A stretch of DNA of 64,000 nt from Candidatus Dojkabacteria bacterium (GCA_030583845.1 CP129478.1:587686-651685); one strand, 5' to 3'; shown: positions 8,694 through 41,144, numbered from the stretch's first letter. Notes: generated by a model from the sequence alone, not told the origin. Numbers and translations: made by a program.

Positions 8694-8706
8694 CAAGAGA
8701 TACAAC

Positions 8707-11736: not shown

Positions 11737-11903
11737 AGGTTCAACTGAATCTATAGATTTGGACGTAGTAGCTAGATCGATGAATTGCAACCCTCTCTCT
11801 TAGGCGACTGATGAGCTATCCTTCCCACCTCCCCTCATCCCTCATTTTAGTCTATAATAGACTATCCACTGTCCCATATACATTACCTATAAACCATCAA
11901 ACA

Positions 11904-21742: not shown

Positions 21743-21779
21743 TTTGATAATAAGAAAACATTAAGTTCTTATTATCAAA
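21743..21779 (+). promoter_or_regulatory. Perfect 14-bp inverted repeat abutting the start codon of surface paralog 1.
   Basis: TTTGATAATAAGAA-aacattaag-TTCTTATTATCAAA. It ends 2 nt before the ATG at 21782 and occupies the RBS position. Confidence 0.5.
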
Positions 21780-21781
21780 CA

Positions 21782-23071
21782 ATGCGCAATCGCAAACTTT
21801 TCAAGGTTGTTGTGGTCTCGGCACTCGTGTTATTTGGCGGGTTTGTGGCTTTTCTCGGCTACACCTACTGGCAAACAAGCCCATCCAAATTATACGTCAC
21901 CAACATCACTGACCGTTCCGCTTCCATCTCGTGGGTCAGCAATGAGGCTACAACTGGTGTAGTGATAGTAAAGGAGGGCAACTACATGCTCCCTCTTAAG
22001 CTCACGACTAATGGTAGTACCCGCGCCGGCTTCGATGATAGAGATCGTGCCCGTGCAGAGCTTGAAGCATCCGAGCAGACAGCTGAAAATCTTGCAGATG
22101 GCACAGCCGCCACAGCAGATGATGTCCAGACAGATGTAACGATCAAGAACTATGGCGAGTATTATGTGCACCACGCCACAATCACAAATCTAAAGCCCGA
22201 AACTGAGTACGACTTTATGGTAGGCAATGGCTGGTTCTTCCACAAGGAGAAGAGTGTCGTTGGTGGATCAGACAAATTTACTACTTTCGCACAGCTTGAT
22301 CAGCTTGCCACTCCAAACCCATCATATGGCAAGGTGGTTCTACCTGGTGAAGGTGATGATTACGAATCGAGCACTGACTCAGTGCTTTATATGAGAGTGG
22401 ATTTTGGCGGTAACAAAGTATCTCAGGTATTGTCTTCGGTAACTGCTGAGAATGGATCATGGTATATCGACCTTGGAAATGCTCGAGATGAATTCGGCAA
22501 TGAGGTCGGAGAGGTGACAGAGGATTTAAATGAGAAGGTATGGGTCGAGGGTGGTCCAAATGGTATGGTTGAAGAGTTCGATAACCCTACAAGTCTGGAT
22601 GCGCCGATGCAGATACTGTTCTTAGAAACTGATGAGGTTGAGGCACGAGCGCCTTTTGATTTCTTAGCAGGTGAAGTAAATGCTGAGTGCTGTGAGGCGT
22701 TTACCTGTGTTGATGCCGACGGGACTACTGTAGCTTCGTATGGTGGTGACGATGACTTTGGAGGAGGTAGTTGTGAGACAAGAAAGACAGGCATCTGTCC
22801 GAGTGGTAGTTCGCCTGTAGGTGGAGCGAAGTGTGGTGATACATCATCGACACCTGGAGCTCCTTCGCAGCCTGGTGGTAGTCCAACTGCTCCAGCAGGG
22901 GCATGTTCGAGCCCTCAGTCAGGAAATTGCCACAACAAATACAACACATCGATCCAGATAGGGTCTAATCCGTATAATGCCTGCACTTGCACATTTTTAG
23001 ACAGCTCTAATCCGGCACTGTGCGGTTGCCATTATATTCCCTCCACAGACACCATCTCCTTCCAATCCTGA
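21782..23071 (+). CDS. Surface protein paralog 1, N-terminal part. It has an N-terminal TM anchor, an FN3/purple-acid-phosphatase-N-like domain, and the start of a Cys-rich region. It is probably the 5' portion of one frameshifted gene running to 24399.
   Basis: Hydrophobic KLFKVVVVSALVLFGGFVAFLGY. Domain signature SASISWVS...YYVHHATITNLKPETEYDFMVG. The Cys/Pro-rich tail continues without stops in another frame (23001-23459). Confidence 0.6.
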   Translation: MRNRKLFKVVVVSALVLFGGFVAFLGYTYWQTSPSKLYVTNITDRSASISWVSNEATTGVVIVKEGNYMLPLKLTTNGSTRAGFDDRDRARAELEASEQTAENLADGTAATADDVQTDVTIKNYGEYYVHHATITNLKPETEYDFMVGNGWFFHKEKSVVGGSDKFTTFAQLDQLATPNPSYGKVVLPGEGDDYESSTDSVLYMRVDFGGNKVSQVLSSVTAENGSWYIDLGNARDEFGNEVGEVTEDLNEKVWVEGGPNGMVEEFDNPTSLDAPMQILFLETDEVEARAPFDFLAGEVNAECCEAFTCVDADGTTVASYGGDDDFGGGSCETRKTGICPSGSSPVGGAKCGDTSSTPGAPSQPGGSPTAPAGACSSPQSGNCHNKYNTSIQIGSNPYNACTCTFLDSSNPALCGCHYIPSTDTISFQS

Positions 23072-23217
23072 GCCATCTGAAGTCGTCGCTCAACCCGGTG
23101 TTAACTGTGGCTCGCCTAGCAGTTCTAATCCATGTCCAATAACTGGACCTGAAACAGTCGTACAGGAGCCTCCGGTAGTCACACCGCCACCACCGACAAA
23201 TGATGATCCGATAACTA

Positions 23218-24399
23218 TTGAAGATGCTACAGCAATACCCGTTTCACCTGTTACCGGTGGTGATGAACCGGGCAGGTACGATGGGGTTCAGTGGACTGGT
23301 AGTAATGCGAGGGCAGAATGTGAAAGCTTATGTGATGGTAACTGTGTCGATCACTATAAGCCAGAGACTGAGGTTGGACGGTATTCAACTCCACAGTTCG
23401 CCTCAACTGCATGTGGGAATAATAGCAATTGTTATCCTGGTACTTGCGCCGTTGAGTGAGGCTTCTACTGGTGAATATGCAGCAATCTGTAACTTGTATC
23501 AATACACCGAGTGTGAAGTTTCCGATGAAATGTTTCAGGCTCCATCAGTGGTGAAGAGTGCGTACGCCCAAACCAACCCCGAATCCCAAGAGTTCCTCTT
23601 CGATCCATCAGCAGGCGTCTACTATGTGGGTGAAGCAGGTGTTTACCAGATCGAATATGAGGGTCAAACATATGAAGCAATTGTCGGAGAAGGTGATCAG
23701 AATGTAATACTGTATATCGACGAAAATGCAAATGGTACATACGATGAGGGTACGGACATTCAGATCTCAGTTAACCCATCGGAGCTAAATGTCGCCCAGA
23801 CCGCTGAGGCACACACATATGATTTGCAAGCTGGATTCAACTTTATCCACCTGCCATTTATCCCTGAAGATTACCCGATGGCATCTGACCTGTTGGAGTA
23901 TGTCAACAACGAGTATGGCGGAATTGCTTTCTCGATTGCCAAATTTGACGACACCTGGAAAGTAGTCGGTGCAAATGGTGGCGAGTTCAATGTAAATGAT
24001 TTCCAGCTCGTGCCAGGTGCTGGCTACCTGCTCAAAATAACTCAGGATACTGAGGTTACATTTACGGGGCGGGAGATCCTTTATGAAACTGAAGGCGATA
24101 CTGCGCCAGTATTCTTCGCACCAGGATGGAACTTGGTCGGTATCTACGGTAGTAATGCAGCTGTTTACTCGGCTGAATCCATGATTGACAGCCTAAACGA
24201 GTATGAAACGACAGATTTTACAGCGGTCAACGTCACACGATGGCCACCAGAGAAGGCACGGTATGAAGGATTGCAAAAGGAGATGGGTGAAGATGGAGAG
24301 TACGATGTATATGGCTTCGACTTCCCATTAAATCAGTATACTTCATACTTTGTGAGAATCACTGAAGGTACTGGTAATTGGGAGCCGGCGATGGAGTAG
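23218..24399 (+). CDS. Surface protein paralog 1, C-terminal part with the conserved ~200-aa C-terminal domain. It is probably the 3' portion of the same frameshifted gene.
   Basis: The C-terminus aligns with the C-terminus of 24782-27853: GFNFIHLPFIPEDYPMASDLLEYVNNEY...SIAKFDDTWKVVG...LVPGAGYLLK...PGWNLVGIYGS...YSAESMIDSLNE...TAVNVTRWPPEKARYEGLQKE...YGFDFPLNQYTSYFVRITEGTGNWEP. The real coding start is probably upstream by read-through from frame 3. Confidence 0.6.
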   Translation: MKMLQQYPFHLLPVVMNRAGTMGFSGLVVMRGQNVKAYVMVTVSITISQRLRLDGIQLHSSPQLHVGIIAIVILVLAPLSEASTGEYAAICNLYQYTECEVSDEMFQAPSVVKSAYAQTNPESQEFLFDPSAGVYYVGEAGVYQIEYEGQTYEAIVGEGDQNVILYIDENANGTYDEGTDIQISVNPSELNVAQTAEAHTYDLQAGFNFIHLPFIPEDYPMASDLLEYVNNEYGGIAFSIAKFDDTWKVVGANGGEFNVNDFQLVPGAGYLLKITQDTEVTFTGREILYETEGDTAPVFFAPGWNLVGIYGSNAAVYSAESMIDSLNEYETTDFTAVNVTRWPPEKARYEGLQKEMGEDGEYDVYGFDFPLNQYTSYFVRITEGTGNWEPAME

Positions 24400-24400
24400 G

Positions 24401-24561
24401 GCGCTAACCTATAATGCGTAGAATTGTACGGCTTATTAACCACCCGACCCACTTGCTTCGCAAGTGGTCGGGTGGTCGGGTGGCTAACCTTTATGGACTG
24501 TGATACTCTGATACTATCTACAGATTACAAATAAACTATTAACGCACTATGAGTTAGCGGC
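24401..24561. repeat. Composite nested palindromic element between the two surface paralogs, with family B half-sites flanking a family A hairpin.
   Basis: GCGCTAACCTATAATGCGTAG at 24401-24421. A CCACCCGACCCACTTGC-ttc-GCAAGTGGTCGGGTGG hairpin at 24440-24475. AACGCACTATGAGTTAGCGGC at 24541-24561 is the near reverse complement of the first half-site. Confidence 0.6.
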
Positions 24562-24810
24562 ATGAATAAGAAGAAGTTATACGTAATAATTGGGATTATC
24601 GCACTTTCGCTGGGCATCGCGGCGGTCAGCTTCTGGTTTGTAAATAGCAAAGCTCCCGATGTTGTGAATGTGACCAATGTGACATCGTCATCCGCGACAA
24701 TCTCGTGGGTAAGCGATGAAGCCGAACCCGGCAAGGTAATCGTCAAACGGGGTAATTACCCATTTCCATTCCAGCCGCGTAATGCAGAGCACGCAGGTAT
24801 ATTTCGATGA
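24562..24810 (+). CDS. Surface protein paralog 2, N-terminal fragment (TM anchor plus start of the FN3/PAP-N-like domain). It is truncated by a frameshift and continues in 24782-27853.
   Basis: MNKKKLYVIIGIIALSLGIAAVSFWF then SSATISWVSDEAEPGKVIVKRGNY. The stop is created at GGT ATA TTT CGA TGA. Paralog 1 reads RAGFDDRD at the same point, and here FDDRD continues in the +1 frame. Confidence 0.6.
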   Translation: MNKKKLYVIIGIIALSLGIAAVSFWFVNSKAPDVVNVTNVTSSSATISWVSDEAEPGKVIVKRGNYPFPFQPRNAEHAGIFR

Positions 24811-27800
24811 TAGAGATGTAGCCGAGTGGGAGGTGAATAATGCAAGCAGTGAAAGCGCATCTGTTGAATTACCAGACCTGACCGACGACGAGATCGGACT
24901 ATACTATACCCATCATGTCACTGTAGTCGGTCTTGAGCCCGATACAAAGTATGACTTTATGGTTGGCACTGGCAATTTCTTTTACAGAGCAACCGACCAT
25001 GATGGTGCAAATGAATTTACCACAGCCGCAATAGCCGACGAGATTGATACACCGGACCCTGCCTACGGCAAGATAGTGGCAACCGGTGAGACCATGTCTG
25101 ACCTGATCCCAGTCGTCGATGCAAATGTTTACTTCTATGTTGAGAATTCGTTTGGAGATGTTCTCACCAATAGGATCTCAGCAACATTAAATGATGAGGG
25201 CTCATGGTATCTCGACCTCAATACACTGTATGACAGTGAGGGAGAGGTATTCTTCTCAACTATCCCGGAAGAGGAGACAGAGCTCTACAAAGAGGTTGTT
25301 GAAGTTCATGTCCCAAGTGGTGATATCTACATGAAGCGAATCTCGCCTTCAGAGGACACTCCGGCTGAAGATATGCTGCTAATTGAAGATTATAAGGTTG
25401 AGAAAGCAATTGAAGGTGAACCCCCATTAAGTGGACTAGCATCATCCGCATATGCATGGGATCTTACCTGTCCAAATGGTAAAAAATTGCATGCTGATGC
25501 AGCTGATGAAGCCAGCTTTATAGCCGTATATGGCGCATCTCAAGCCCAATCGAAGTGGGAGCAGGAGGCAAGCGGCTACTGTGGCGACCCGAACACCCCG
25601 AGCTGGCAAGAGGGCCAGCCTACTGTACAGCTTACCGACGAAGTCTGCGCTGTAACCTATACTGAGACAGGCGCATTTGGCTCTAACGATGGCTGTGAGT
25701 ATAACTGTGTAGGTATGGGGCATAGAACCATAGGTGGTGATTGTAAGAATGAATGGGGTAATGGCTCCTACTGCCAGAAGAAAGATCCAAACTGTGGAAC
25801 TGTGTGCGTAGGTGGTGAAGTATGTAAGCAGGGAGATTTCTGTATTTCTGGTGATTATCAGTGCTGCACTGCAGGATGTAATGTGAGAGGCTCCGAGGGT
25901 GGTAGCTCAGGCTCTGGAAATGGGTCTGGTACTCCTACCAATCCATCTGTGTGCCCTAACAAGAAGCCTGACAATGCAACTGAGAGGTGTGGTGAAGATA
26001 ATGTCTGTAATACTGGTGAGTGGTGTGGAGACTTGAATGGTGTTAGCTGTAAGTGCGGTGAAGGGACTGTCGAGTGTGGGATGGTGTGTACACAGTCGAT
26101 CTCCGAAGGCAAGGTAGCTGTAAAAGTATGTTGCCTGTATCATGGTGTGCCATCGCTATTGACGAACTATACAGGGGAATGTCCAATAGGCTGGCAAGAG
26201 GGAACTCAGAACCAATGCAAGACAACGGCGGGTACGTTGCCAACAGAGCCTGTGTGTTGTAAACCTCCAAGTGGCGAGGATATATGGATGTATACTCCAT
26301 CGGGACAGTGTGAAGCGCCACTGGTTTCATCAACTTGTCCAGCCAAGCCTAAGCCTGTACCTCTGCCAATCAATCAATCAACTCCTGCTCCAGTCGTGAC
26401 AAGCGGCAGTGAGTATACAAACACATGCACTGTCGAGCCTAATCAGAGATGTGGTGATTGTAAAGGGCAGGTAGGTGAGGCAAATGGCATAACTTATATG
26501 TGTACAGATATTGGAGCCGGTAGCTTCTTATATTGGTGGAAAGCTGTTGTGCCTGCTGGTGAGAGATGTCCTGATGGAAATGAGTGTATATGTGTAACTA
26601 GAGGCGGTGATGGTTCGATCGAACATTACTCTGGTGACCACAATTGCAATTCTTTAGCGCAGCCTGCTGGATCGCTTACTCCGATAGGTAACAACCAGCA
26701 GTGTCCCGCGGACAGCAACGGATGCTTCTGTGATACTCAAAATGGATACATATATCCTGGCTCATGGTGTGGATATGCCGTCTCATGTGACGCCAATAAC
26801 GTCGGAAGCGTGTGTAATAACGATGGCACAACATGTGAATTCACTGAAGGACAAACGGCTACATATACTACGTTAGGTGGAGATACCAAGACTATGCCGT
26901 GGGATGAATGTCAAAATACCCCTGAGTGTATCAACGGCTATCCACAAGTTCGTTCAGGTGAATATACATGCACTGGTCCGACAGCTTCATCTTTGGACAA
27001 CGGGTCTGACCTCATCTCAGAAGCTAGCACAGCTGTGCTTGGTGCGGGAACGGGTAGGTCGGTCAAAGTGTCTCCTCAAAACAACGCTGTAGCTATAGAT
27101 GATAGTGGAATATATTGTACCGCTGTCGATGCTCAGGAGTACTGCTTCGAATTAACCGATGCAGCAGAAAATATCCTTTACGCTGATCTAAACGGTAATA
27201 ATACCTACGAAGAAGGTACTGATTTACTGGTCTCTCAGGATGGTAGAGAGCTTGAGCTCCAACAGCAAAATACCACCTTCGACTACCAGATGGTGAAAGG
27301 ATTCAATTTCGTCTCGTTCCCATTTGTTAACGCAAGCTATATGGCTACAGCTTCTGATCTACTGACCTATCTGAATTCCGAATATAGCAATGGTTTCTAC
27401 TCCATCGCGAAATTTGAAGCCGGTCGTTGGAGAATTGTTGGGAATAGAGAAGGCGACAACTATGGCTCAGAGGACTTCCCATTGGTTCCAGGAGAGGGAT
27501 ACCTGTTTAAAGCCAATCTTGACATCTTAATTTCATTAAGTGGTCAGCGAATTACAGAGCCAGTCCCAGTGTATATAGCAACAGGCTGGAACCTAATCGG
27601 TGTTAATAGCGGTAGCGATGAATCCAAATACACAGCTGAAAGCCTAATTGACGACGTTAACTCAACCGAGGGACTCACCGCAGTGAACCTATCGCGCTGG
27701 TCAACCAGCAAAGCCCGCTACGAAGGCCTACAGAAAGAAGATGTTGATGGCACTGCACAGGTTTATGGTTTCGACTTCCCGGTCGACAACCGTAGCTCAT

Positions 27801-27853
27801 ACTTCTTGAGAATCGTTGAAGGTGAGGGACTTTGGACACCCGACGCACAATAG
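24782..27853 (+). CDS. Surface protein paralog 2, main part. It has the rest of the FN3/PAP-N-like domain, a ~550-aa Cys-rich region (more than 60 Cys) and the conserved C-terminal domain.
   Basis: YYTHHVTVVGLEPDTKYDFMVGTGNFFY completes the domain. Cys-rich repeats read CxxGxxC...CC. The C-terminus is GFNFVSFPFVNASYMATASDLLTYLNSEY...GWNLIGVNSGS...KARYEGLQKE...YGFDFPVDNRSSYFLRIVEGEGLWTP. Confidence 0.65.
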   Translation: MQSTQVYFDDRDVAEWEVNNASSESASVELPDLTDDEIGLYYTHHVTVVGLEPDTKYDFMVGTGNFFYRATDHDGANEFTTAAIADEIDTPDPAYGKIVATGETMSDLIPVVDANVYFYVENSFGDVLTNRISATLNDEGSWYLDLNTLYDSEGEVFFSTIPEEETELYKEVVEVHVPSGDIYMKRISPSEDTPAEDMLLIEDYKVEKAIEGEPPLSGLASSAYAWDLTCPNGKKLHADAADEASFIAVYGASQAQSKWEQEASGYCGDPNTPSWQEGQPTVQLTDEVCAVTYTETGAFGSNDGCEYNCVGMGHRTIGGDCKNEWGNGSYCQKKDPNCGTVCVGGEVCKQGDFCISGDYQCCTAGCNVRGSEGGSSGSGNGSGTPTNPSVCPNKKPDNATERCGEDNVCNTGEWCGDLNGVSCKCGEGTVECGMVCTQSISEGKVAVKVCCLYHGVPSLLTNYTGECPIGWQEGTQNQCKTTAGTLPTEPVCCKPPSGEDIWMYTPSGQCEAPLVSSTCPAKPKPVPLPINQSTPAPVVTSGSEYTNTCTVEPNQRCGDCKGQVGEANGITYMCTDIGAGSFLYWWKAVVPAGERCPDGNECICVTRGGDGSIEHYSGDHNCNSLAQPAGSLTPIGNNQQCPADSNGCFCDTQNGYIYPGSWCGYAVSCDANNVGSVCNNDGTTCEFTEGQTATYTTLGGDTKTMPWDECQNTPECINGYPQVRSGEYTCTGPTASSLDNGSDLISEASTAVLGAGTGRSVKVSPQNNAVAIDDSGIYCTAVDAQEYCFELTDAAENILYADLNGNNTYEEGTDLLVSQDGRELELQQQNTTFDYQMVKGFNFVSFPFVNASYMATASDLLTYLNSEYSNGFYSIAKFEAGRWRIVGNREGDNYGSEDFPLVPGEGYLFKANLDILISLSGQRITEPVPVYIATGWNLIGVNSGSDESKYTAESLIDDVNSTEGLTAVNLSRWSTSKARYEGLQKEDVDGTAQVYGFDFPVDNRSSYFLRIVEGEGLWTPDAQ

Positions 27854-27896
27854 ATTAAAATCAAGGTAGAAATAAATTATTTACATGATTAGTTAA

Positions 27897-28232
27897 ATGT
27901 TAAATCAGATTCCCGCAGAATTTTGGATGGTTATTATCTCAGTCCTGACACTGTTCCTGGTATTTATCATGTACCAAATTGCCAACCTGTTGAAGGAAAG
28001 CACCAAGACTATGGCCGAGACAACCAAAGTTGTTACAGAGCTCCAGGATACAGTGAAGAAAGCCAATCTAGTGCTAGAGGATGCAGCAGAAGTTGTCTCA
28101 ATGACAAAAACCACTGTCGAAGAGGTACAGGATAACGTGGTGACTCCAGTCATTAAGATAGCTTCGATCATCGGTATGGTCTCAGATATTGTAGATAGCT
28201 TCACTGGCGGGTTCAAGGGCACCAAGGAGTAG
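27897..28232 (+). CDS. Small membrane-anchored protein, DUF948-like.
   Basis: N-terminal TM WMVIISVLTLFLVFIMYQIANLL followed by a charged coiled-coil-like region. Confidence 0.5.
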   Translation: MLNQIPAEFWMVIISVLTLFLVFIMYQIANLLKESTKTMAETTKVVTELQDTVKKANLVLEDAAEVVSMTKTTVEEVQDNVVTPVIKIASIIGMVSDIVDSFTGGFKGTKE

Positions 28233-28303
28233 CCATATCTTGCGCTGTGAGTATCCTACACGAGTAGACAATTTCTGCTCTGTTTCCTATTATAAAAGCA
28301 GAA

Positions 28304-30214
28304 ATGTACATCACACCTAGGCAGAAAAAAAGGTATATATTCAGATTCACACTTGTCGCTTTAGCCATTCCGCTAGTGGTTTTGGCCATCTATGCTGGTG
28401 TCCAATGGTTTTCAAGCGCTGACACCGAAGCAACTCCCGAGGATGTAGTTATCAGCAACCTCACTACCAGCGCTGTCACATTGAGCTGGACCACGACGGT
28501 GGATGCTAGCTCCAGCGTGAAGATGGTCGAAAGCGGAGATGTCTTCACCGATCCGCGAGGTGCAAGCTCAAGAAGGACCCATTTTGTTGAAGTCACTGGG
28601 CTCGAGCCAGAGACAGAGTATGAGTTCAAAATCACTTCAAATGGCCAGGATTATACCGCAGAGGGTGGAGCTGCATTTAGATTTACCACTGCCCCAGTGA
28701 GCGATGAGGCCTCAGTGCCCTTCCCAGCATATGGGACAATAGAGGGTGCGAATGGAGATGATGCACTTATTTTCTTCGTGGTTGCTGGTGCCACTCAATC
28801 TCTGCCGGTCTCAGCAGTGCCGCAATCAACAGGGAACTGGATCTTGGATCTATCTTCAGTCCGATCACTGGATGGTACTTCATTAATACAGGTCAGCAGC
28901 GATAGCTCTGTTGAGCTTCTGGCAATCGGGCATGACGGGATGGGCTCGAGAGTCACAGGAAAATTTAGCGATCTTTTCGACGAAGAGGGGATGCTTATTG
29001 CGGAATTTTCTCTTCAGTCCGATACCGATGTGATGGCCTACCTACCTGGCGCGTCAAAGATTACGACGATTATTGCTGAGCAGCCACCAGGAGAGGAACC
29101 ACCACCGTCTGAAGAACCACCACCATCTGAAGAGCCGCCTCCATCTGAAGAACCACCACCATCTGAAGAGCCACCTCCTGCTGAGGAGCCGCCACCATCT
29201 AACGACTTTGACCCTGCATCAAGACAGTTCCTGATTCGCGCCGATATCGTGTGGGTTGATATGGTTGAGATAACAGGCGATGGTGCTGCTCCAGTAGTTG
29301 TGACCGGTGAGCAGTCGGTACAGCTTGTTGCACGAAATGACACCAGCTTCTCTGTCGTATGGCTTACAGAAGATGAGGTCCCGGGCTATGTAAGCTATGG
29401 AGAGGATGAAGATGATCTGATCGAAGAGGCGATCGACATTCGCGACACCTTGGTATCGCGCGGAGATTACAGATCACACCTAGTCGAGATATCTGGTCTT
29501 ACCCCTGAGACCATATACTACTTTGAGATACATTCGGGCGACGAGACATACTCGTTGAACGGAGAGCCATATCAACTAGAAACATTTGACACAGTGGTCA
29601 CTCCACCACCATTTAGTACAGCCCAAGGCACAGTATCTGGCTTAGAGAGTTATGACGATGTTGTGGTGCTTGTGCAGCTAAATGATGTTGATGGCGCAGG
29701 TACTGCAGGTGCATCACAGCTTGGAGCTGTAGTCCCTGATGAGAATGGTGCTTGGATCGCAAGCATCGGCGACCTACGAAGCGAAAGTGGCACTGAGTAC
29801 TATGTGTTAGGCGATACAGATGAGGTTACAGCTGAATTGGTTGTATACGCTAATTCTGAGCCAGTCACGATTACAGGTGATGAGATTGAGGATAGTGAGC
29901 TAGCCTTGACTGCCGATCCGCCTACAGAGGGTGGGAGCAGCTACCAGCGAATAGCCTTGCTAAATGATTATGGGGTCTCATCGACCTATGCGGAGTCTCC
30001 AACAAGTGGCGTAGGGGGTGGTGGCCCTGCCGATGTCGATACTGGGAGCGAGATTACTACACCGAAGACCGGTATTGAAGATAACTTGGTAGTGGCTTCA
30101 GCGGTTGGTGGAGGTTTGCTTACGGTTGGGGCGGCTACTTTGTTGGTCGCTTACAGTGGTCGTGGCAAGAAGAAGGGCGTAAACAAGGGCTCTTTGACTA
30201 GTCGGGTCTCATAG
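28304..30214 (+). CDS. Cell-surface protein with an N-terminal TM anchor, two FN3-like domains, (EEPPPS)6 repeats and a C-terminal LPXTG-like sorting signal.
   Basis: FN3 signatures VTLSWTT...THFVEVTGLEPETEYEFKI and SFSVVWLTEDEV...YRSHLVEISGLTPETIYYFEI. The C-terminus reads TPKTG, then a 21-residue hydrophobic stretch, then RGKKKG. Confidence 0.7.
   Translation: MYITPRQKKRYIFRFTLVALAIPLVVLAIYAGVQWFSSADTEATPEDVVISNLTTSAVTLSWTTTVDASSSVKMVESGDVFTDPRGASSRRTHFVEVTGLEPETEYEFKITSNGQDYTAEGGAAFRFTTAPVSDEASVPFPAYGTIEGANGDDALIFFVVAGATQSLPVSAVPQSTGNWILDLSSVRSLDGTSLIQVSSDSSVELLAIGHDGMGSRVTGKFSDLFDEEGMLIAEFSLQSDTDVMAYLPGASKITTIIAEQPPGEEPPPSEEPPPSEEPPPSEEPPPSEEPPPAEEPPPSNDFDPASRQFLIRADIVWVDMVEITGDGAAPVVVTGEQSVQLVARNDTSFSVVWLTEDEVPGYVSYGEDEDDLIEEAIDIRDTLVSRGDYRSHLVEISGLTPETIYYFEIHSGDETYSLNGEPYQLETFDTVVTPPPFSTAQGTVSGLESYDDVVVLVQLNDVDGAGTAGASQLGAVVPDENGAWIASIGDLRSESGTEYYVLGDTDEVTAELVVYANSEPVTITGDEIEDSELALTADPPTEGGSSYQRIALLNDYGVSSTYAESPTSGVGGGGPADVDTGSEITTPKTGIEDNLVVASAVGGGLLTVGAATLLVAYSGRGKKKGVNKGSLTSRVS
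29093..29200 (+). repeat. 18-bp tandem repeat x6 encoding (EEPPPS)6.
   Basis: gaggaaccaccaccgtct and five near-identical in-frame units follow one another. Confidence 0.85.
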
Positions 30215-30282
30215 AGGTTATAACTGATGACTCCTGCAGCTCAATCAAGGCTAATTCTTAATCGTTCCCACACCTATAGCCT

Positions 30283-30311
30283 TGTAAACTTTTTGCCTAA
30301 TCAGTACAATT
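30283..30311 (+). promoter_or_regulatory. Candidate promoter (TTGTAA, 17-nt spacer, TACAAT) for gene 30338.
   Basis: -35 box at 30283-30288 and -10 box at 30306-30311, 26 nt upstream of the ATG. Confidence 0.35.
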
Positions 30312-30337
30312 TGGCAATTTAGCTTCTGTAATATTGA

Positions 30338-31864: not shown

Positions 31865-31882
31865 TATTAAGTAACGCCCAAA

Positions 31883-33361
31883 ATGGTAGATCGAATATAT
31901 AAGATATACAAATTCGCAGGAAAGATAGCTAGGTCGAGGGCTTTGAACAGTGCGCTGGTGCTTGTGGCGACATTCGGTCTAGGCTTGGAGGTCGTATCGC
32001 CAATTGTCTATGCACAAGACGGCGAAGGTAATGCAACCGTTGACGCAGGAGAGTCTTATACTTCTGGGACTGCTGTGATTGATACTCTGACAGAGTCAGA
32101 GGGTGTGACAGACAGTGCGAATCTGGCACAAAATCAGGCAACAGACTTCGCGATTGTTGCACTTTCGATTACATGTATGGAGTGTCTCGAGAATGCAGAT
32201 GATGTGGCTGCCAACCCAAATATCCATCCTTCTGCAAAGACAAGTCTACTGACCCTCGTTGATAATAACAATAGACAGATGCTTACAAATCCGCCTACAC
32301 AGAACCTTTACGCACATATGCAGACCCAGTGGATGCCAGGCGAGACATATGCAAATAGAAGCGTCTATGCTCAGTCTGGGTATGACTTACTCATATCGAC
32401 CGGCATTGATCAGCTCTGGGAAAATGTGAGAAATGTTGCCTACGTTATCTTCGTGCTAGTGCTTATAGTTGCCGGGTTTATGATGATGTTTAGGCAGAAA
32501 ATAGGTGGTCAACTGGCTGTGACGGTATTCAACACAATTCCTCAGGTCATAATATGCCTGATATTGGTAACATTCAGTTTCGCCATAGTCGGTTTAGTCT
32601 TAAATCTTAGCGCCACGCTTACAAATGTAGCTGCTGGTATTCTTGGCCTAGCTGATCCGACAGATGGTGTAACGGCCACGGGGCCGCTTTCAGTGTTTAG
32701 CGCATTTATTTCTGGGAATATTGTTACTGTTGGTGCGGCAAGTGTAACGACAATAGTAACTACAGTAGCAGGATCGATCTTGGCAAATAGTGGAATTGCA
32801 GCACTGGGTATAGCTGCCTCTCCATTGGCAGGTGGTACACTAGCTATTATAGGTCTTGTTGGCATCTTGATAGTGTTAGTTATCCTCGGAATCGTTCTGG
32901 TTGGATCAGTGAAGGTATGGATTACCCTTCTAAAGGCATATGTTGGTATACTTATCGATACAATATTGGCTCCACTCTATTTAACAATGTCCGCCTTGCC
33001 TGGCAGATCTCAGATGCGCGGAGATTGGTTTAGACGAATCCTCAAAAATGCATTAACTTTTACTGTTGTGTTTTTCTTCCTTAATCTTGCGGCTTTTGTA
33101 TTTAATGCAAACATTAATCTTGGATTTCCTACCTCTCTGGCAGAAGGTCAGACAGCTCCAGTTGGCTCTGGCCCCGTTTTGCTTGCGTGGCTGCTGAAAG
33201 GTGCAGTCTCGATCTATCTAGTATATGTAGCGGCTGAGGCACCTAAATTCCTTGAAGAGTTCTTGCCGCAGACTGGTGGGAAGAGTGTTGCAGGGGCACT
33301 GCAGTCAGCTGCTAAGGGTGCATTTGGCAAGCTTCCAATTGTCGGTGGCATGATGGGCTAA
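31883..33361 (+). CDS. Polytopic membrane protein with a VirB6/TrbL-like topology: a signal peptide, a ~170-aa extracytoplasmic domain, then 5-7 TM helices.
   Basis: Signal-like SALVLVATFGLGLEVVSPIVYAQ. Dense TM bundle from VAYVIFVLVLIVAGFMMMF onward, with Gly/Ala-rich helices. Confidence 0.6.
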   Translation: MVDRIYKIYKFAGKIARSRALNSALVLVATFGLGLEVVSPIVYAQDGEGNATVDAGESYTSGTAVIDTLTESEGVTDSANLAQNQATDFAIVALSITCMECLENADDVAANPNIHPSAKTSLLTLVDNNNRQMLTNPPTQNLYAHMQTQWMPGETYANRSVYAQSGYDLLISTGIDQLWENVRNVAYVIFVLVLIVAGFMMMFRQKIGGQLAVTVFNTIPQVIICLILVTFSFAIVGLVLNLSATLTNVAAGILGLADPTDGVTATGPLSVFSAFISGNIVTVGAASVTTIVTTVAGSILANSGIAALGIAASPLAGGTLAIIGLVGILIVLVILGIVLVGSVKVWITLLKAYVGILIDTILAPLYLTMSALPGRSQMRGDWFRRILKNALTFTVVFFFLNLAAFVFNANINLGFPTSLAEGQTAPVGSGPVLLAWLLKGAVSIYLVYVAAEAPKFLEEFLPQTGGKSVAGALQSAAKGAFGKLPIVGGMMG

Positions 33362-33437
33362 TGAGCTGTTTTTCGACCAATTCCCAAGCTGAGAGAATCA
33401 GGCCACTGTTCTGAAATAATTATGTGAGCATAACTTA

Positions 33438-36400
33438 ATGGCGCAAAGAAAAGACCTATACTCCAATTCGTTCTCCTCGGTGTCGAGCTTTATTTTGGGT
33501 AATAACAAGCCTAAGAAGCCTGTAAAACGCAAGCCGCCTAAGTATGATGGGATTGATTATAATGATGGTCTCGCAGGCGCGCTTGCAACCATGGCAGGTG
33601 CGCCTGGTGTGTTTCTGGGTGAATCAGCCATAAACTCGCTTAACTCCACCCTTGGAGACCCTTCTCTGATAGAGCTTTATATTGATAAAAGCGAGAAGCA
33701 AAAGATGCAGGGTCTGGATAAGAATGCTGGACGTATTAGGGTCCGTGGATCTGACCTTAACAAGTTTATACAGTCTCCAAGCTCATTTCTCGACAAGGCA
33801 CTTCAAGGTGCACGTGCTGAACGGAAGTGGGCACTTACGGTAGCGCTTCTTGGTGGTGGTGCAGAGGTAGCAAATACCTATATGTGGGCAAAGAAAAACA
33901 ACCTCAGCAATAGTGATGCAGCTCGGCTTGCAAGCTCGGTATGGGATCTGGATAAGAGTATTTACACCGATCAAGAAAGTCTTGGAATAATGACAGAAAC
34001 GGCGCTCCTTAAGAGTGGAGGCCGGTCGATCAAAGAGGCTGAGGAATTAAACGCCAAACTTGTGGCGAGCGTGGCAAAGCAGAAAGAGGGTAGGCAGACT
34101 GTATCACGTTTATGGACTGGAGCGGCATCCGATGTTTCTGATCACATAATGTCTGGTGCACTGTTTAAATCTCAAGATGAGTACTCAAAATTTCTCTTGG
34201 AGAAGGGTCTTAAAGATAAGGAACGAGACTTAGTCTTGAAGCTTAGAGCAGGTACACTTACGGAACCGGAGGAAGTTAGTTACGCCAATCGGCTTGAGAA
34301 TGATCTCAAGTCTGCCGCTGCAGCAGGATGGCCTAAAATTACGTCGCAGAAGACAAAGCTAGATGCTCTTGTTAGTCAGAGCATACCAGATCCGGCAGCT
34401 CGTGAGCGATTCTATCAAGAGTTTGCGAAAGAGTATACCTCAAGGTATGGAAAAGTTGATTATACGGCAACAGGCAACTTAACGAATTTCGGTGTCCGCG
34501 AGATGTTGAAGGATAATTATTGGGCGAAGGCACAGCTTTCGACTGGAGCTGATAAGGAGAAGTATCTGAGAACAATAGCAGCTGTAGATGTATTGCAGAG
34601 GACGAAATCGCCGGGTGATTATTCAAAGCCTGATTACGATAAAGCAAGAGAGGCTGTTACATCACTCAAAGGACAGCCAGGTGTATCTCAGTCGGATATA
34701 GATGGCCTCTTGGGACAGATAAATAAAGCGGAGTCAATGTACGCAAAACGGTATGTTAAGCATCGTGCGCATAATGAGGTTGAAACTAAGTGGCTAAAGC
34801 CACTTAATAATCCGATGATGTCCTATGAAAATGCTCCTGAGGCCAAGCTTTTGCTTGAGGCCAAGCTGAAAACAAGCAGATATAGTCTTATATCACGAGG
34901 TTTAGCAGTGGATGACCCACGGGTACAAGAGATCGATTATGCGTTGGAGACGTTAAAAAGTGGGTTCAACCCGTTTGGTGGTGGTCGTCCACGTATGGCA
35001 AATATGATAATGATGTACCGCTCAAGGGGTAGCATGGCAAATTTTGTACCTGGGCTGTTTACTGGTGCTTCCTATGCCGATGGTGTGATGTCACCAGGGG
35101 ATTGGGGAGGGATCACTATGAAATATAGGATGAAAGATCGTTGGGGGGTTGATAAGAACGGTAACCCGAAGTTACAGGTCGGAGAAGCTAAAGGATTTAT
35201 CCTGCAAGGCCGCTCGCACCTTCCAACTGCATATCAAGGGCTAGTGAACTACTACTATCTGACTCCAGGCAGTTTGATCAAGAGTACATTGTGGAATGGT
35301 GAGGGTCTTTACTACCTTGCAGAGCAACGAAGGCGCCGAGGGATTACCAAGATGCTTTCTGAGCTCGATCCCGATAAAATCCAGAATCCAACAGGCTCCC
35401 TGGCGAAGTACTTCGAAGCGTTGAAGGATGATGCGGGCAATGTAACGGGGCATAGGTTTATGTGGGAAAAGGTGGATGGGGATTTTCTTGGGATTCTGGA
35501 AGCGCTAAAAGATTCTGGCTACGCTGAACTATACAGGAAGTATGACAAAGTATTTAGAGGATATGAGTCTACTGTCGCGTGGGCGCATAGATTCGCAATG
35601 CCTGAAAGATTTTTCGGAAATAAGGGGGTAATCGGAGCGCAAAGACTTAAACTTCAAGGTAAAGTTGTACAATTCTTTGGTGCATTGTCAAAAAATAAAG
35701 AATGGAATGCTGCACTTAAGCTGTTCGGAGCAGGTGAGATCGGGCTCTATCAGCTGGTCGAGGCTGGTGTGAAGATTGTATTTGGCACAGTACTTAAGGC
35801 TCTCGGCCCAGTCGGTACCGTACTCTCATTTGTCATCACGGATGTAATTGTCTCAGCCCTTGTCAAAATAAGCAAACCAATCCTCGATATGAGCGTATTT
35901 GCCCTAATGGCAACGGTCGCTCTCTTCTTCCTACTTCTCTGTACAGTAATCTCAAGCCCATTCACTCTTGCCAACCGCCTCAAGACACATGCAGTCCAGC
36001 CGCCAGTCGAGGGAGTCGAGCTCGAGCCATTGCCAGGTGAATTCCCGGATGATCCAGATGCAGTAGTTATTGACCCAACCAAAGATGCGATCTGTCCAAT
36101 AAATGCAGGTGCAATCTGTACGCAGGGACCACGCGGCTCCTACTCACACGCCAGGATGGGTACATATGCAATCGATGTGAGCACAGGTGCAGGTCCATTC
36201 AGAGCGCCAACCGATGGTGTAGTTGTGAGTGTGAGATCGTCAAACTCTTGCCCATGGGGACCAAACCGTGGAGCAAATTATGGTGGATCTGTTGTTTTCC
36301 GATCGTCGGATAATATCTACTATGAAGTGATGCACGCAAATCCAACAGTAGGCACTGGTCCTGTTGAGCAGGGCACAGTGTTAGCGACAATGGCTTACGG

Positions 36401-36554
36401 ATTGCCACGAAGCGGGTGCTGGACTGGGGCACACTACCATATCGATACCTGCTTCGGCAGCCAGTCTGCTTGTGTAGCTCGAAGCCGAAGTGCCAGATGG
36501 CTTAACTCTAAAGATTGGTATAACGAGTTGAAATGTAATATCCGCGGATGTTAG
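33438..36554 (+). CDS. Large (1038 aa) protein with a ~760-aa N-terminal domain, an internal TM hairpin and a C-terminal M23 (LytM-type) peptidase domain.
   Basis: M23 motifs HARMGTYAIDV...GAGPFRAPTDGVVV (HxxxD and active-site region) and GAHYHID (HxH). TM segments at aa ~770-840 (IVFGTVLKALGPVGTVLSFVITDVIVSALV and VFALMATVALFFLLLCTVI). Confidence 0.7.
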   Translation: MAQRKDLYSNSFSSVSSFILGNNKPKKPVKRKPPKYDGIDYNDGLAGALATMAGAPGVFLGESAINSLNSTLGDPSLIELYIDKSEKQKMQGLDKNAGRIRVRGSDLNKFIQSPSSFLDKALQGARAERKWALTVALLGGGAEVANTYMWAKKNNLSNSDAARLASSVWDLDKSIYTDQESLGIMTETALLKSGGRSIKEAEELNAKLVASVAKQKEGRQTVSRLWTGAASDVSDHIMSGALFKSQDEYSKFLLEKGLKDKERDLVLKLRAGTLTEPEEVSYANRLENDLKSAAAAGWPKITSQKTKLDALVSQSIPDPAARERFYQEFAKEYTSRYGKVDYTATGNLTNFGVREMLKDNYWAKAQLSTGADKEKYLRTIAAVDVLQRTKSPGDYSKPDYDKAREAVTSLKGQPGVSQSDIDGLLGQINKAESMYAKRYVKHRAHNEVETKWLKPLNNPMMSYENAPEAKLLLEAKLKTSRYSLISRGLAVDDPRVQEIDYALETLKSGFNPFGGGRPRMANMIMMYRSRGSMANFVPGLFTGASYADGVMSPGDWGGITMKYRMKDRWGVDKNGNPKLQVGEAKGFILQGRSHLPTAYQGLVNYYYLTPGSLIKSTLWNGEGLYYLAEQRRRRGITKMLSELDPDKIQNPTGSLAKYFEALKDDAGNVTGHRFMWEKVDGDFLGILEALKDSGYAELYRKYDKVFRGYESTVAWAHRFAMPERFFGNKGVIGAQRLKLQGKVVQFFGALSKNKEWNAALKLFGAGEIGLYQLVEAGVKIVFGTVLKALGPVGTVLSFVITDVIVSALVKISKPILDMSVFALMATVALFFLLLCTVISSPFTLANRLKTHAVQPPVEGVELEPLPGEFPDDPDAVVIDPTKDAICPINAGAICTQGPRGSYSHARMGTYAIDVSTGAGPFRAPTDGVVVSVRSSNSCPWGPNRGANYGGSVVFRSSDNIYYEVMHANPTVGTGPVEQGTVLATMAYGLPRSGCWTGAHYHIDTCFGSQSACVARSRSARWLNSKDWYNELKCNIRGC

Positions 36555-36567
36555 TTAGGAATCAAAT

Positions 36568-37659
36568 ATGGACAAGCTGCTCAACATAATAAAAAAGAAT
36601 AAAGTCGTGGTGCTTGGAGCTCTAGGGCTGTTGCTGGTAATTGCTATTGCACTAATTGTTATGCAGCTAATTGGTGGTGAAGAGACAGAAATCCCGAAAG
36701 GGAGTGTTGACCAGCCTTTTACATATGAGACGGGCAAGCAGTTGGAGATACCGGAAACAGTTGAGTACACAAATTTCGACCCAGGTGATGATACGACTGC
36801 GCCAATTTACGAATTTGCACTTGAGAATAAAGTCGATCTTGTGAAATCGTTCCTGGGTAGCATCGGTAAACGCTCGATGGAGCTCGAGGAGTATGAGGAT
36901 GTTGTGTATTACTGGAGAGATGACCCGAGCGATGATTTCTATGTGGTTGAGTACAACGCGTTGACCGACCGTGTATTCTTTAGATTTGAGAGCGCTGTAG
37001 ATCCAGACCTGAATGCTGGTGGATATCTGAGCAGAGAGGATCTCGAACAGTATTTTACTGCTTTTGTTCATGAGTATTGGGATCAGTCGTACAGCTACAC
37101 TGATTTCAATGTGACTAGGGATGGATCGACTTATCGAATTGAGGCGAGCAGGCTGATTGGGAAGTATCCTTTGCACATCTCTGGCTTTGAAGAGTATTCG
37201 GATTATCTGGTTGTTGAAGATGATGGAGATATACTCGAGGGGCAGATCTATCTGATGAATTACGATCTCTCTACAGCACAGAATGTTGATCTTATTACGA
37301 CAGTTGGTCTCGGATCAGTGATCGGGCGAGATGATTATCCGAAGGATTTCTATCAATTGGAGCCTCAAGATCTTGATGGTACCTTATTATATGGTGAGCC
37401 ATACACACCTGCACAATCAGCAGGTGATCCTCCTCCAACGCCTGATGGTGAGATCCCAGAATTGACCGAGTGCACAGCTGAAGAGATATCGTTGGTGTAC
37501 CTCTACATGAGCGGTACATATCAGATGCTTACCCCAGCGTATAAGATCAGGTGTGCTGGAAATGTCGTCGTAGAAGGTAGGAGCTATAGAACAGAGGCGC
37601 TTGTTTTTGCCAATGCGATCGATCCGGAGCTTGTGTATGTGCCGGCAACGACGGAGTAG
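36568..37659 (+). CDS. Membrane-anchored extracytoplasmic hypothetical protein.
   Basis: N-terminal TM VVVLGALGLLLVIAIALIVMQLI. Acidic, aromatic-rich body with C-terminal Cys residues. Confidence 0.55.
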   Translation: MDKLLNIIKKNKVVVLGALGLLLVIAIALIVMQLIGGEETEIPKGSVDQPFTYETGKQLEIPETVEYTNFDPGDDTTAPIYEFALENKVDLVKSFLGSIGKRSMELEEYEDVVYYWRDDPSDDFYVVEYNALTDRVFFRFESAVDPDLNAGGYLSREDLEQYFTAFVHEYWDQSYSYTDFNVTRDGSTYRIEASRLIGKYPLHISGFEEYSDYLVVEDDGDILEGQIYLMNYDLSTAQNVDLITTVGLGSVIGRDDYPKDFYQLEPQDLDGTLLYGEPYTPAQSAGDPPPTPDGEIPELTECTAEEISLVYLYMSGTYQMLTPAYKIRCAGNVVVEGRSYRTEALVFANAIDPELVYVPATTE

Positions 37660-37779
37660 CTTACGGATGGGTTATGTAAGAAATTCATTAACTCTTAATG
37701 GGAGATTCTGTATATAATAGTGCCGCTACTGACTAATTTTGTAGTTGCGGATTTAATCTTTGCCCGATAAGATATAGGT

Positions 37780-38976
37780 ATGAAAATTTTGACCAAGATT
37801 GTAAATATTCTGCTTGTTGTTGCCGCGTTTGTGGTGGTTGTGCCTCAGGTTCCAGGATATCAAGCTGTCAAAAGAGAAGATCTTGGTTTTGATGAAGGTC
37901 TCTCAAGCAAAGACGCTGCACTATATGCATTTCCAGGTAAGATATTAATAACACAGGTCGAAGCTCCAAATACCGCGATGGAATCTGACCCGGAATCATG
38001 GATCGATCTGCTCTACTACTACTACATCACAAGACTCGGTTTTGGCGACCTACCATACACCTATCTGGTTGATAAGTCGGGCACAGTGTACGAAGGCCGC
38101 TCGAATTATGAGGGAGTTGTGCCAGAGCTGCTGGATGCAGAAGGTGCTGTGCTAATTGGCTATCTATCAAATGGTGCCGATGTTACCTCTGCAGCAGCAG
38201 ATTCAATCAACGAGCTGGTCGAAGAGGTCTCATATAAATATGGAATCACTCGTGAAAATGTAGAGGCCGTTGACCTTGAAGTATCTCAGCAGACTGCTGA
38301 AGGTGAGCTGAGCAAGCTCGAGTATAAGAGTACTGATTCAATGTTTGCAGATGAGCTTGATCAGATCCTTTCAAAGGTTACATATTCCGATAGAGAAAAT
38401 TTGAGCTTTAAGGCAGCTGTCAGCGAGGTAAGCTTCGAAGAGAAGGTGCCGATCGGCGGGAAGCTAACTGTGAAATTCAAACTGAAGAATGATGGCGATA
38501 CTCCATGGTTTACACTGAACGATTTTGTCTATGTGGTCACATCAAGCAACGAAGATAGTCAATTTGCGGTAAATGGTGAGTGGGATAGCTTCGATACACC
38601 AACCCATGTTGAGGGCAAGACTGTGTTGCCTGGCGAGAGCGTAGATATTGAGTTCCAGATGGCAGCCAATACAATGCCTGGTGAGTACTCTGAGAGCTTC
38701 AAATTTAGCCGTACTGGTGGTAAAGATCTGCAGGGTGGTGAGTTTGAAGTTAAGTTCACAATCGAGCAGGGCGATGTCCAACTGATTGAGATCACAGAAA
38801 CTGAGACCGGTAATCTAAATGTCCGCAAAGACCCAAATCTTGGGGCACAGGTGGTTGGACAGGTTGATTCCGGCGCAATCTTTGTAGTTAAAGAATCGCA
38901 AAATAACTGGTATAAGATTGAATATGAGCCTGGCGCAGATGGCTGGGTGATCGGTAGATATATAAAGCGGCTTTGA
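37780..38976 (+). CDS. Secreted amidase_2/PGRP-like domain protein with a C-terminal bacterial SH3 (SH3b) domain. The catalytic Zn ligands are possibly substituted.
   Basis: Signal/TM ILLVVAAFVVVVP. LGFGDLPYTYLVDKSGTVYEGR resembles the amidase_2 GYHFLI..DG.I..GR block but lacks the His residues. The C-terminus TGNLNVRKDPNLGAQVVGQVDSGAIFVV...NNWYKIEY..GADGWVIGRYI has an SH3b signature. Confidence 0.55.
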   Translation: MKILTKIVNILLVVAAFVVVVPQVPGYQAVKREDLGFDEGLSSKDAALYAFPGKILITQVEAPNTAMESDPESWIDLLYYYYITRLGFGDLPYTYLVDKSGTVYEGRSNYEGVVPELLDAEGAVLIGYLSNGADVTSAAADSINELVEEVSYKYGITRENVEAVDLEVSQQTAEGELSKLEYKSTDSMFADELDQILSKVTYSDRENLSFKAAVSEVSFEEKVPIGGKLTVKFKLKNDGDTPWFTLNDFVYVVTSSNEDSQFAVNGEWDSFDTPTHVEGKTVLPGESVDIEFQMAANTMPGEYSESFKFSRTGGKDLQGGEFEVKFTIEQGDVQLIEITETETGNLNVRKDPNLGAQVVGQVDSGAIFVVKESQNNWYKIEYEPGADGWVIGRYIKRL

Positions 38977-39049
38977 ACTACCCGACCACTTGGCGTTTAT
39001 CGTATAGTGAGCAGCACTTTGCCACCTAGCCAAGTGGTCGGGTAGTTTT
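38976..39049 (+). repeat. Family A palindromic element, likely the terminator after gene 37780-38976.
   Basis: Perfect 19-bp stem AACTACCCGACCACTTGGC / GCCAAGTGGTCGGGTAGTT with a 34-nt loop and a TTTT tail. Confidence 0.6.
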
Positions 39050-41078: not shown

Positions 41079-41144
41079 CCCGACCACCCGACTACTTGCG
41101 AAGCAAGTGGGTCGGGCAAGTGGTCGGGTGGTCGGGCTAGTTTA
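41075..41144. repeat. Family A palindromic element with an internal duplication, shared by the convergent pcrA and rpfB-like genes (bidirectional terminator candidate).
   Basis: The left arm CTAGCCCGACCACCCGACTACTTGC pairs with GCAAGTGGTCGGGTGGTCGGGCTAG (1 mismatch). An extra GCAAGTGGGTCGGG copy sits in the loop. Both stop codons lie inside the element. Confidence 0.6.

Follow-up and report, generated by a model that had tools for sequence, protein, structure and literature searches.

What does a candidate phyla radiation (CPR) bacterium build from an unbroken run of genes for membrane-anchored and secreted proteins that has no recognizable secretion ATPase beside it? The question is raised by a stretch of 64,000 nucleotides (hereafter the window) from a tiny and probably host-dependent Candidatus Dojkabacteria bacterium (GCA_030583845.1, CP129478.1:587686-651685), in which positions 21782-38976 are taken up by nine such genes, all on the plus strand. 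A first-pass annotation of the bare sequence had described this run, over 21.7-39.0 kb, as a co-directional cluster of ten genes and a candidate for an undescribed envelope or host-interaction system in a CPR-like genome. The placement of the genome (WS6, Patescibacteria/CPR) and the uniform direction of the genes bear it out, and the open reading frame (ORF) listing yields nine genes rather than ten. As to the nature of the system, we propose, at a probability of roughly 0.55, that the cluster is the envelope or surface part of a Dojkabacteria version of the patescibacterial (Gram-positive-type) type IV secretion system (T4SS)-like apparatus, encoded apart from its motor. It is built around a diverged copy of VirB6/DotA and is therefore most likely the surface half of a known secretion machine; the idea of an undescribed system unrelated to T4SSs is not supported, since its channel protein is a relative of the one that takes the place of VirB6 in T4SS loci of an already described system.

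The argument starts from the 492-aa polytopic membrane protein that anchors the cluster (Table 1), a product identical to the NCBI protein QY318_02765. We modeled it with AlphaFold2 on 30 sequences (mean predicted local distance difference test score, pLDDT, 74) and searched the model against PDB libraries with Foldseek. The top matches are four chains of TrwI/VirB6 from the stalk of the R388 T4SS (probability 0.99-1.00, E 0.017-0.07), with a modest TM-score of 0.44 by target length and 0.29 by query length; the remaining matches have a probability of about 0.5 or less, and those to proteins outside T4SSs 0.2 or less. By fold, the protein matches structures of TrwI/VirB6 from R388 and of DotA from the Dot/Icm system of Legionella (PDB 7o3v, 8rt9, 8rtd, 9ngy), with which it shares 8-13% sequence identity. 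Judged by the model, it appears to be a very diverged VirB6/DotA-type polytopic channel subunit, and the earlier call of a VirB6/TrbL-like protein stands on this fold match. The family is a large one, with a profile-based HMMER search recovering 4,322 cluster representatives (50% identity) at E ≤ 0.001, and 2,544 at E ≤ 1e-30.

The second line of evidence comes from gene neighborhoods. The 492-aa protein is a sequence relative (E 1e-20 to 1e-29) of the VirB6-position protein of patescibacterial T4SS loci, and its most distant phmmer matches (P0112, E 4e-25; P0114, 1e-24; P0116, 4.5e-23; P0119, 1e-21) all occupy that position. These four loci, which represent a sister branch of the family, each carry 4-8 pilin genes (PF18895), and in three of the four there are also genes for PrgI, a TraC-like protein that we equate with TrsD, VirB4, and an M23 protein. 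Typically, a pilin array is followed by a gene for a Cys-rich protein with a signal, by the VirB6-like gene, by an oppositely oriented gene for a protein of 750-850 aa, by the PrgI-like and TraC-like genes, by VirB4, and finally by the gene for a 700-833-aa M23 protein. One locus (L091) has the pilin array and the opposite-strand protein and no VirB4 within its contig. A metagenome scan with the sister branch as query added 80 further loci: among the 23 that extend 8 kb or more downstream, 19 have VirB4 (median distance 6.8 kb), and among the 32 that extend 5 kb or more upstream, 28 have at least three pilin ORFs; Dojkabacteria-type partner families were found in none of the 80. One sequence cluster includes a protein from Candidatus Shapirobacteria (Microgenomatia). 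A survey using standard profiles reported VirB6 homologs to be scarce or absent in Microgenomatia and Gracilibacteria (Quinonero-Coronel et al. 2025, PMC12102498). Given the VirB6/DotA fold together with the VirB6 position in T4SS loci, the 492-aa family probably fills this reported VirB6 gap in at least one large CPR class.

The third line concerns conservation of the cluster in Dojkabacteria. A scan of GTDB, with one genome per species and the alignment of the 492-aa family as query, gave 338 confirmed relatives, of which the best 80 loci were taken with 10-kb flanks; about 35 of these bear Dojkabacteria or WS6 names, and the others have generic or automated names and the same synteny. Hidden Markov models (HMMs) of the families were then iterated on the ORFs of the fetched loci, with counts referring to loci that cover each expected position. 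Beside the 492-aa gene, the 1038-aa protein is encoded in 80/80 loci, the Cys-rich secreted protein in 70/73, the 363-aa anchored protein in 61/64, the 111-aa protein in 61/64, and the peptidoglycan recognition protein (PGRP)/SH3b protein in 54/58. Nearly all the conserved genes keep the order and strand seen in the window, an arrangement far beyond chance. The first-pass annotation had held that unlinked genes in close relatives would refute a common system; across relatives they prove to be both linked and co-conserved.

Synteny alone is nevertheless weak evidence for a functional unit because in most loci the collinearity extends to the neighboring housekeeping genes as well (uvrD, EF-G, and the genes for the G5/Rpf and TPR proteins). 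One could accordingly hold that there is no functional unit at all, the genes being neighbors merely through the collinearity of Dojkabacteria chromosomes. This becomes very improbable in light of three genomes in which the core of the cluster is intact at a different site: loci L067, L073, and L077 have a four-ORF block between queA and tgt, with sizes and order as in the window, namely a ~490-aa ORF, a polytopic protein, a big M23 protein, and an anchored protein. The HMM of the secreted family recognizes the first ORF of the block in L067 and L077, and not in L073. In the genome to which the window belongs, queA directly adjoins tgt, about 13 kb past the window end. The core has thus moved as a unit, and we recognize a portable four-gene block coding for the Cys-rich secreted protein, the polytopic protein, the transmembrane (TM)-plus-M23 protein, and the anchored protein. 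The short gaps within this core (19, 77, and 14 bp) and the fact that every product of the cluster is an envelope protein further speak against mere adjacency. A scan of the cluster for promoters and terminators gave no signal above shuffled expectation.

Whether the cluster cooperates with a T4SS motor bears directly on our reading. Pfam scans of the large ORFs detected no VirB4 in the window, and none lies in the 10 kb of sequence adjoining it on each side, i.e., over about 30 kb on either side of the cluster; hence, the earlier statement that no VirB4/VirD4-type ATPase, relaxase, pilin, capsid, or terminase is seen holds for the window, and the search of the flanks that it recommended extends the absence of VirB4 by 10 kb each way. 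Several observations weigh against assigning the cluster to a T4SS. Three patescibacterial VirB4 queries (phmmer) found no match in the window or in 84 Dojkabacteria-type loci, and neither did PrgI-like and TraC-like (TrsD) queries from L085, L086, and L090; a VirB2-like pilin array is likewise missing, with no pilin ORFs in the window or the 84 loci. HMMs of the cluster families other than the channel protein have no matches in the T4SS loci. The large M23 proteins of the two kinds of loci match weakly (hhalign 60% over 99 columns; phmmer E 2e-4), with homology outside the M23 domain no more than hinted at; in favor of a link, on the other hand, the M23 protein beside VirB4 in L086 is of similar build to the 1038-aa protein (a long N-terminus without a signal, a TM cluster, and a Pfam M23 domain). 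The resemblance of the 363-aa protein to VirB8 (NTF2-fold) is not convincing, and none of 30 members of the 492-aa family, the window protein included, reaches E 0.01 with the Pfam TrbL/VirB6 profile (PF04610), which has sub-threshold matches in two of ten further relatives (E 5e-4 and 5e-3). Moreover, synteny proves less for the adhesin and SH3b genes than for the four-gene core, and the VirB4 locus of Dojkabacteria may carry a VirB6-family gene of its own.

The same observations can be accommodated by an autonomous envelope complex without an ATPase, in which a VirB6/DotA-like channel uncoupled from VirB4 acts with lineage-specific partners as a passive conduit or host-contact organelle. The separation of VirB4, PrgI, and pilins from the cluster in 84/84 loci (and by ~30 kb on each side here), the partner families without detectable relatives in T4SS loci, and the mobility of the four-gene core as a self-contained block would all be expected of such a complex. 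Even so, we consider it unlikely. To our knowledge, no VirB6/DotA-type protein works without a VirB4-class ATPase. Further, VirB4 and T4SSs are reported to be widespread in Patescibacteria, Dojkabacteria included (PMC12102498 and its preprint), and in some organisms, e.g., Rickettsia, the T4SS genes are dispersed (PMC12102498). A new motor-less host-contact organelle, built around a detached channel with partners of unknown fold (the Cys-rich secreted protein, the 770-aa N-terminal region of the M23 protein, and the giant adhesins), is hence a doubtful prospect; if it were real, the VirB4 loci would have either their own VirB6-family gene or none of the partners found in the cluster, and the cluster would represent a further system, independent of the first and kept throughout a CPR class. 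With VirB4 reported in Dojkabacteria genomes, a split system, i.e., a T4SS-like apparatus whose surface part is encoded away from its motor, is the simplest reading.

Table 1. The nine genes of the envelope cluster, with features predicted for their products (positions in the window)
Product	Coordinates	Strand	Features
Giant Cys-rich surface protein, paralog A	21782..24399	+	N-terminal anchor, FN3/purple-acid-phosphatase-N-like domain, Cys-rich middle, family-specific C-terminal domain
Giant Cys-rich surface protein, paralog B	24562..27853	+	50 Cys in 1023-aa ORF
Small 111-aa membrane protein	27897..28232	+	N-terminal TM segment, weakly DUF948-like
636-aa surface protein	28304..30214	+	Signal anchor, two FN3/PAP-N-like domains (PAP-N, purple-acid-phosphatase-N), (EEPPPS)n linker, putative C-terminal sorting signal
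508-aa secreted Cys protein, core gene 1	30338..31864	+	Invariant cysteines; directly upstream of the VirB6-like gene
492-aa polytopic membrane protein, core gene 2, cluster anchor	31883..33361	+	VirB6/DotA-like fold in the model
1038-aa protein, core gene 3	33438..36554	+	Helical N-terminal region, hydrophobic segments 780-838, C-terminal M23
363-aa N-terminally anchored extracytoplasmic protein, core gene 4	36568..37659	+	Tandem alpha/beta domains, YycI/YycH/YpeB (PepSY)-like in the model
398-aa secreted protein	37780..38976	+	PGRP/amidase_2-like ~41-160, Ig-like ~219-314, bacterial SH3 344-396

Among the partners of the channel protein in the core, the 508-aa secreted family is marked by seven invariant cysteines in an otherwise fast-evolving sequence (12-21% identity among relatives), and has no Pfam or PDB match in sequence and profile searches. 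We asked if it, or the giant proteins of the cluster, might be kin of the Cys-rich 'X' proteins that precede the VirB6-like gene in T4SS loci, and dropped this candidate: the hhalign probability is below 1%, such that they are alike in position and composition only.

The 1038-aa protein begins with a helical region of ~770 aa without a signal peptide, the first 40 residues of which are conserved and basic. This part yields no informative match when the family profile is searched against PDB. Its hydrophobic segments are confined to residues 780-838 and the M23 metallopeptidase domain spans ~900-1010, for which the topology would be N-in, C-out. Anchors at the start of almost every product had been claimed for the cluster; by hydropathy, eight products have such an N-terminal hydrophobic segment, and the 1038-aa protein does not. 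The M23 call fares better. While the Pfam model is not detected in the window protein itself, Peptidase_M23 is recognized in 12 of 29 relatives, a search of PDB with the family profile hits M23 enzymes of solved structure at E 1.4e-6, and the candidate metal-binding and catalytic residues are kept in most of the aligned relatives (D913 in 24/29, H966 in 28/29, H999 in 24/25, and H1001 in 23/25; H904 is the candidate first His outside these counts). This conservation suggests that the peptidase is probably active, in which case it would supply the wall-hydrolase function of VirB1. In one of the 29 relatives a CHAP domain stands where M23 is expected, i.e., the wall-cutting module has been swapped.

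Such a protein brings to mind phage tape-measure proteins, among which are long helical ones with hydrophobic segments and a C-terminal M23 domain, e.g., T5 Pb2. The cluster could on this account be a prophage tail or lysis module or the remnant of a conjugative element, with the 1038-aa product as a tape-measure-like protein with a lytic domain, and the M23-to-CHAP swap is of a kind often seen in phage as well as T4SS hydrolases. We regard this account as close to refuted. Pfam scans of the ORFs in the 64 kb uncovered neither phage genes (capsid, terminase, portal, or tail tube) nor an integrase or relaxase, and thus none of the nearby capsid or terminase genes to which the first-pass annotation had tied the phage reading; in tblastn searches, the 1038-aa protein had no match among 50,697 phage records and the 492-aa protein none among 72,556 plasmids; the cluster sits at the same core locus across the class; and the GC content is unremarkable, with no island signature over the window. 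Parts of a type IV pilus (the PilB/PilT ATPases, the PilC platform, and prepilins) are also not represented by any such Pfam family among the ORFs scanned.

The last gene of the core codes for the 363-aa anchored family, which has no Pfam or PDB match by sequence or profile searches. A first profile search gave six proteins, and the alignment used for folding was built from a second search that drew on a different clade. The protein models well (pLDDT 82, predicted TM-score 0.76), and the model matches the fold of YycI/YycH/YpeB, by which we class it as YycI/YycH/YpeB-like. The 398-aa protein that follows the core matches PGRPs (E ~1e-4) and SH3b domains (E 4e-8) with its family profile, and Ig-like and SH3b domains in Pfam. 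Its first-pass reading as an amidase_2-like/SH3b protein stands to that extent; however, across 30 relatives there is no invariant His or Cys in residues 38-160, where the zinc ligands would lie. The missing ligands suggest peptidoglycan binding without catalysis, and the protein is probably a wall binder and not an amidase.

Taken by themselves, an M23 peptidase, a YycI/YpeB-like regulator, a PGRP/SH3b binder, and a polytopic scaffold could make up a housekeeping module for remodeling or dividing the cell's own peptidoglycan. YycH/YycI and YpeB are partners in wall-hydrolase control in Bacillus, and the fold match of the 363-aa protein therefore favors this possibility, as do the fixed chromosomal site of the cluster among core genes (rRNA methyltransferases, uvrD, EF-G, and the ribosomal operon), its apparent universality in the class, and an Rpf-like transglycosylase gene nearby. 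We still hold it to be improbable: the fold of the presumed scaffold is specifically that of VirB6/DotA, its relatives are found in T4SS loci and not in division clusters, and the adhesin-like FN3, Cys-rich, and fast-evolving secreted proteins better fit a surface interaction. The transglycosylase in question, with a G5 domain in addition to the Rpf-like one (41137-42126, minus strand), lies two genes past the cluster and is kept there in most Dojkabacteria loci; a functional connection with the cluster may or may not exist.

The genes preceding the core code for the prospective adhesins. The first-pass description of two giant Cys-rich paralogs with an FN3/PAP-N-like domain and a private C-terminal domain is borne out: FN3/Pur_ac_phosph_N domains are detected by Pfam in both giants as well as in the 636-aa protein, the C-terminal domains of the paralogs share 43% identity over 265 aa, and the family of this domain has no PDB match in a profile search. 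Relatives of the giants lie upstream of the cluster in 35-49 of 84 loci. In the present assembly, paralog A is spread over three frames (21782-23071, ~23072-23457, and ~23455-24399) by two frameshifts, and paralog B is split by one frameshift, due to a single inserted base near 24778. This base is missing from a second, independent assembly of the strain from short reads (Logan contig L001), in which paralog B is intact at 1096 aa. The frameshifts could reflect assembly error, decay, or switchable expression. Exact-product look-up of the first fragment of paralog A and of the DUF4153 protein encoded before it returned no record.

The 636-aa protein ends in TPKTG, a hydrophobic segment, and the basic tail RGKKKG, a layout of the sortase-type sorting signal. 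Both the (EEPPPS) repeats and the LPXTG-like signal that had been noted in it are confirmed, the motif being [T/I]PxTG, and this motif followed by a TM segment and a K/R tail recurs in 25 of 67 orthologs. A sortase gene lies ~6 kb before the window start. This recurrence and the nearby sortase imply that the sorting signal is probably real and the protein a predicted sortase substrate. The DUF948-like nature of the 111-aa protein is weak, with 22 of 30 family members matching, all below threshold. We also considered it as a VirB2 pilin or VirB3 and dropped this, having found just weak matches to DUF948, sub-threshold NCBIfam matches to membrane proteins of Mycoplasma integrative and conjugative elements (ICEs; E 0.002-0.008), and a single pilin match of one family member (E 0.0014) when pilin phmmer queries were run on the window and 84 loci.

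Some further features of the channel family and its loci deserve mention. Residues 160-237 of the 492-aa protein, comprising the first two TM helices, weakly match the TrbC/VirB2-pilin family (E 1e-4, below cutoff), as do three of 30 relatives, and a PF18895 pilin from L086 matches the 492-aa-family ORF of L064 (E 4.5e-5); the channel protein may thus contain a hairpin resembling a pilin, or the similarity may be compositional only. Locus L035 (7742-11239), of the Dojkabacteria type, has two tandem VirB6-like genes (645 and 520 aa) and no giant protein, with DUF4153 directly before the 111-aa gene. In the sister branch, VirB4 contains an intein (Intein_splicing and a LAGLIDADG endonuclease domain) in two loci (L086, 15632-19204; L090, 12758-16504). 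Small PF05635 (23S_rRNA_IVP) genes occur in or beside these loci (L086, 19197-19553; L090, 635-1006 and 10696-11064; L085, 14379-14798), and the one of L086 also matches PF22296 (bAvd), the accessory protein of diversity-generating retroelements.

The cluster is flanked on the left by the gene for the DUF4153 membrane protein (19530-21692) and on the right by uvrD/pcrA (39060-41078). Further upstream, the window contains nusA, infB, a type I restriction system, pnp, rpsO, and two rRNA methyltransferase genes, and further downstream, beyond the G5/Rpf-like gene, a TPR protein gene, fusA, tuf, and the ribosomal protein operon. The restriction-modification system (hsdM, hsdS, and hsdR at 5155-11736) has a T5orf172/MUG113 (GIY-YIG-like) gene (8076-8693) between hsdS and hsdR, and is followed by a 417-aa ORF without assignment (11811-13064). 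About 0.5-10 kb upstream of the window start (L087, 1-9961, from the same strain) are genes for the sortase and a solute-binding protein, for a Big_7 protein whose 1001 aa are truncated where the locus ends, and for a 1354-aa protein without assignment. This region adds to the coding space for large surface proteins.

If the cluster is indeed the surface part of a T4SS-like apparatus, its products can be given tentative places according to their position, fold, or family. The VirB6/DotA-like polytopic protein would be the channel subunit, and the secreted Cys-rich protein, from its position alone, may cap or extend it, much as VirB6 is joined by VirB5 or DotA by IcmX. For the 1038-aa protein, we envisage a membrane-spanning arrangement that would place its large part in the cytoplasm and the M23 peptidase on the outside, where it would cut peptidoglycan cross-links and let the machine through the cell's own wall or into that of a host. 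The YycI/YpeB-like anchored protein may position or restrain this peptidase, the PGRP-like/Ig/SH3b protein would bind peptidoglycan, and adhesion would fall to the FN3 protein, anchored by sortase, and to the giant Cys-rich proteins. The genes for the energizing VirB4 ATPase, for VirB3/PrgI, and for any pilins would lie at other sites of the genome. On this scheme, the products would assemble physically and cooperate with the distant VirB4, the peptidase would come under the control of the YycI-like protein, and a host cell would be the target; the host-contact, wall-breaching role suggested by the first-pass annotation is a reasonable one.

While the kind of system is already known (PMC10633639, PMC12102498), two aspects appear to be undescribed, namely a large VirB6/DotA-like family that is invisible to profiles, and the architecture in Dojkabacteria, where the VirB6-like protein is permanently linked to envelope proteins specific to the lineage and has no linkage to VirB4, PrgI, or pilins. 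With the surface half of the machine set apart in a single conserved block, a short list of candidates for new subunits can be drawn up: a protein capping the channel, an M23 protein that spans the membrane and has a large cytoplasmic part, a regulator resembling YycI, a protein binding the wall, and adhesins. Searches anchored on virB4 neighborhoods miss such surface parts.

Comparison with known systems places the cluster at varying distances from them. VirB6/TrwI of R388 and DotA of Dot/Icm, which share the fold of the channel protein, differ in coming from diderm systems with outer-membrane core complexes, where they are pentameric with VirB5 or IcmX. The PepSY-type anchored proteins to which we liken the 363-aa protein are the WalK regulators YycH/YycI and the partner of the lytic enzyme SleB, YpeB, of Bacillus. 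A further parallel is a Gram-positive conjugative T4SS, the Prg/Pcf system of pCF10, with VirB6-like PrgH, the wall hydrolase PrgK, VirB8-like PrgL, and the LPXTG surface proteins PrgB/PrgC. As in the cluster, a VirB6-like protein of the membrane is combined there with a wall hydrolase bound to the membrane and with repeat-rich surface proteins anchored by sortase. In contrast to it, the hydrolase of the cluster has M23 only, with TM segments near the C-terminus after a 770-aa region, and the cluster has no clear VirB8-like protein, ATPases, relaxase, or plasmid/ICE context and no sequence similarity to plasmid genes (tblastn).

The patescibacterial T4SS remains the reference for our reading. 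The Dojkabacteria loci differ from it in lacking VirB4, TrsD-like, and PrgI genes and a VirB2-like pilin array within 10 kb, and in having as neighbors FN3/Cys-rich adhesin-like, Cys-rich secreted, YycI-like, and PGRP/SH3b proteins that are without detectable relatives there. They agree with it in the phylum and its monoderm envelope, in a channel protein of the same sequence family as its VirB6-position protein, in the absence of a relaxase and coupling protein nearby, and in a large M23 peptidase protein, which in the T4SS loci comes just after virB4. T4SS genes (SEML1_0006-0019) are essential for the epibiotic growth of the cultivated saccharibacterium Southlakia epibionticum (Wang et al. 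2023, PMC10633639); for no other envelope machine has it so far been shown that a cultivated CPR bacterium depends on it to live as an epibiont.

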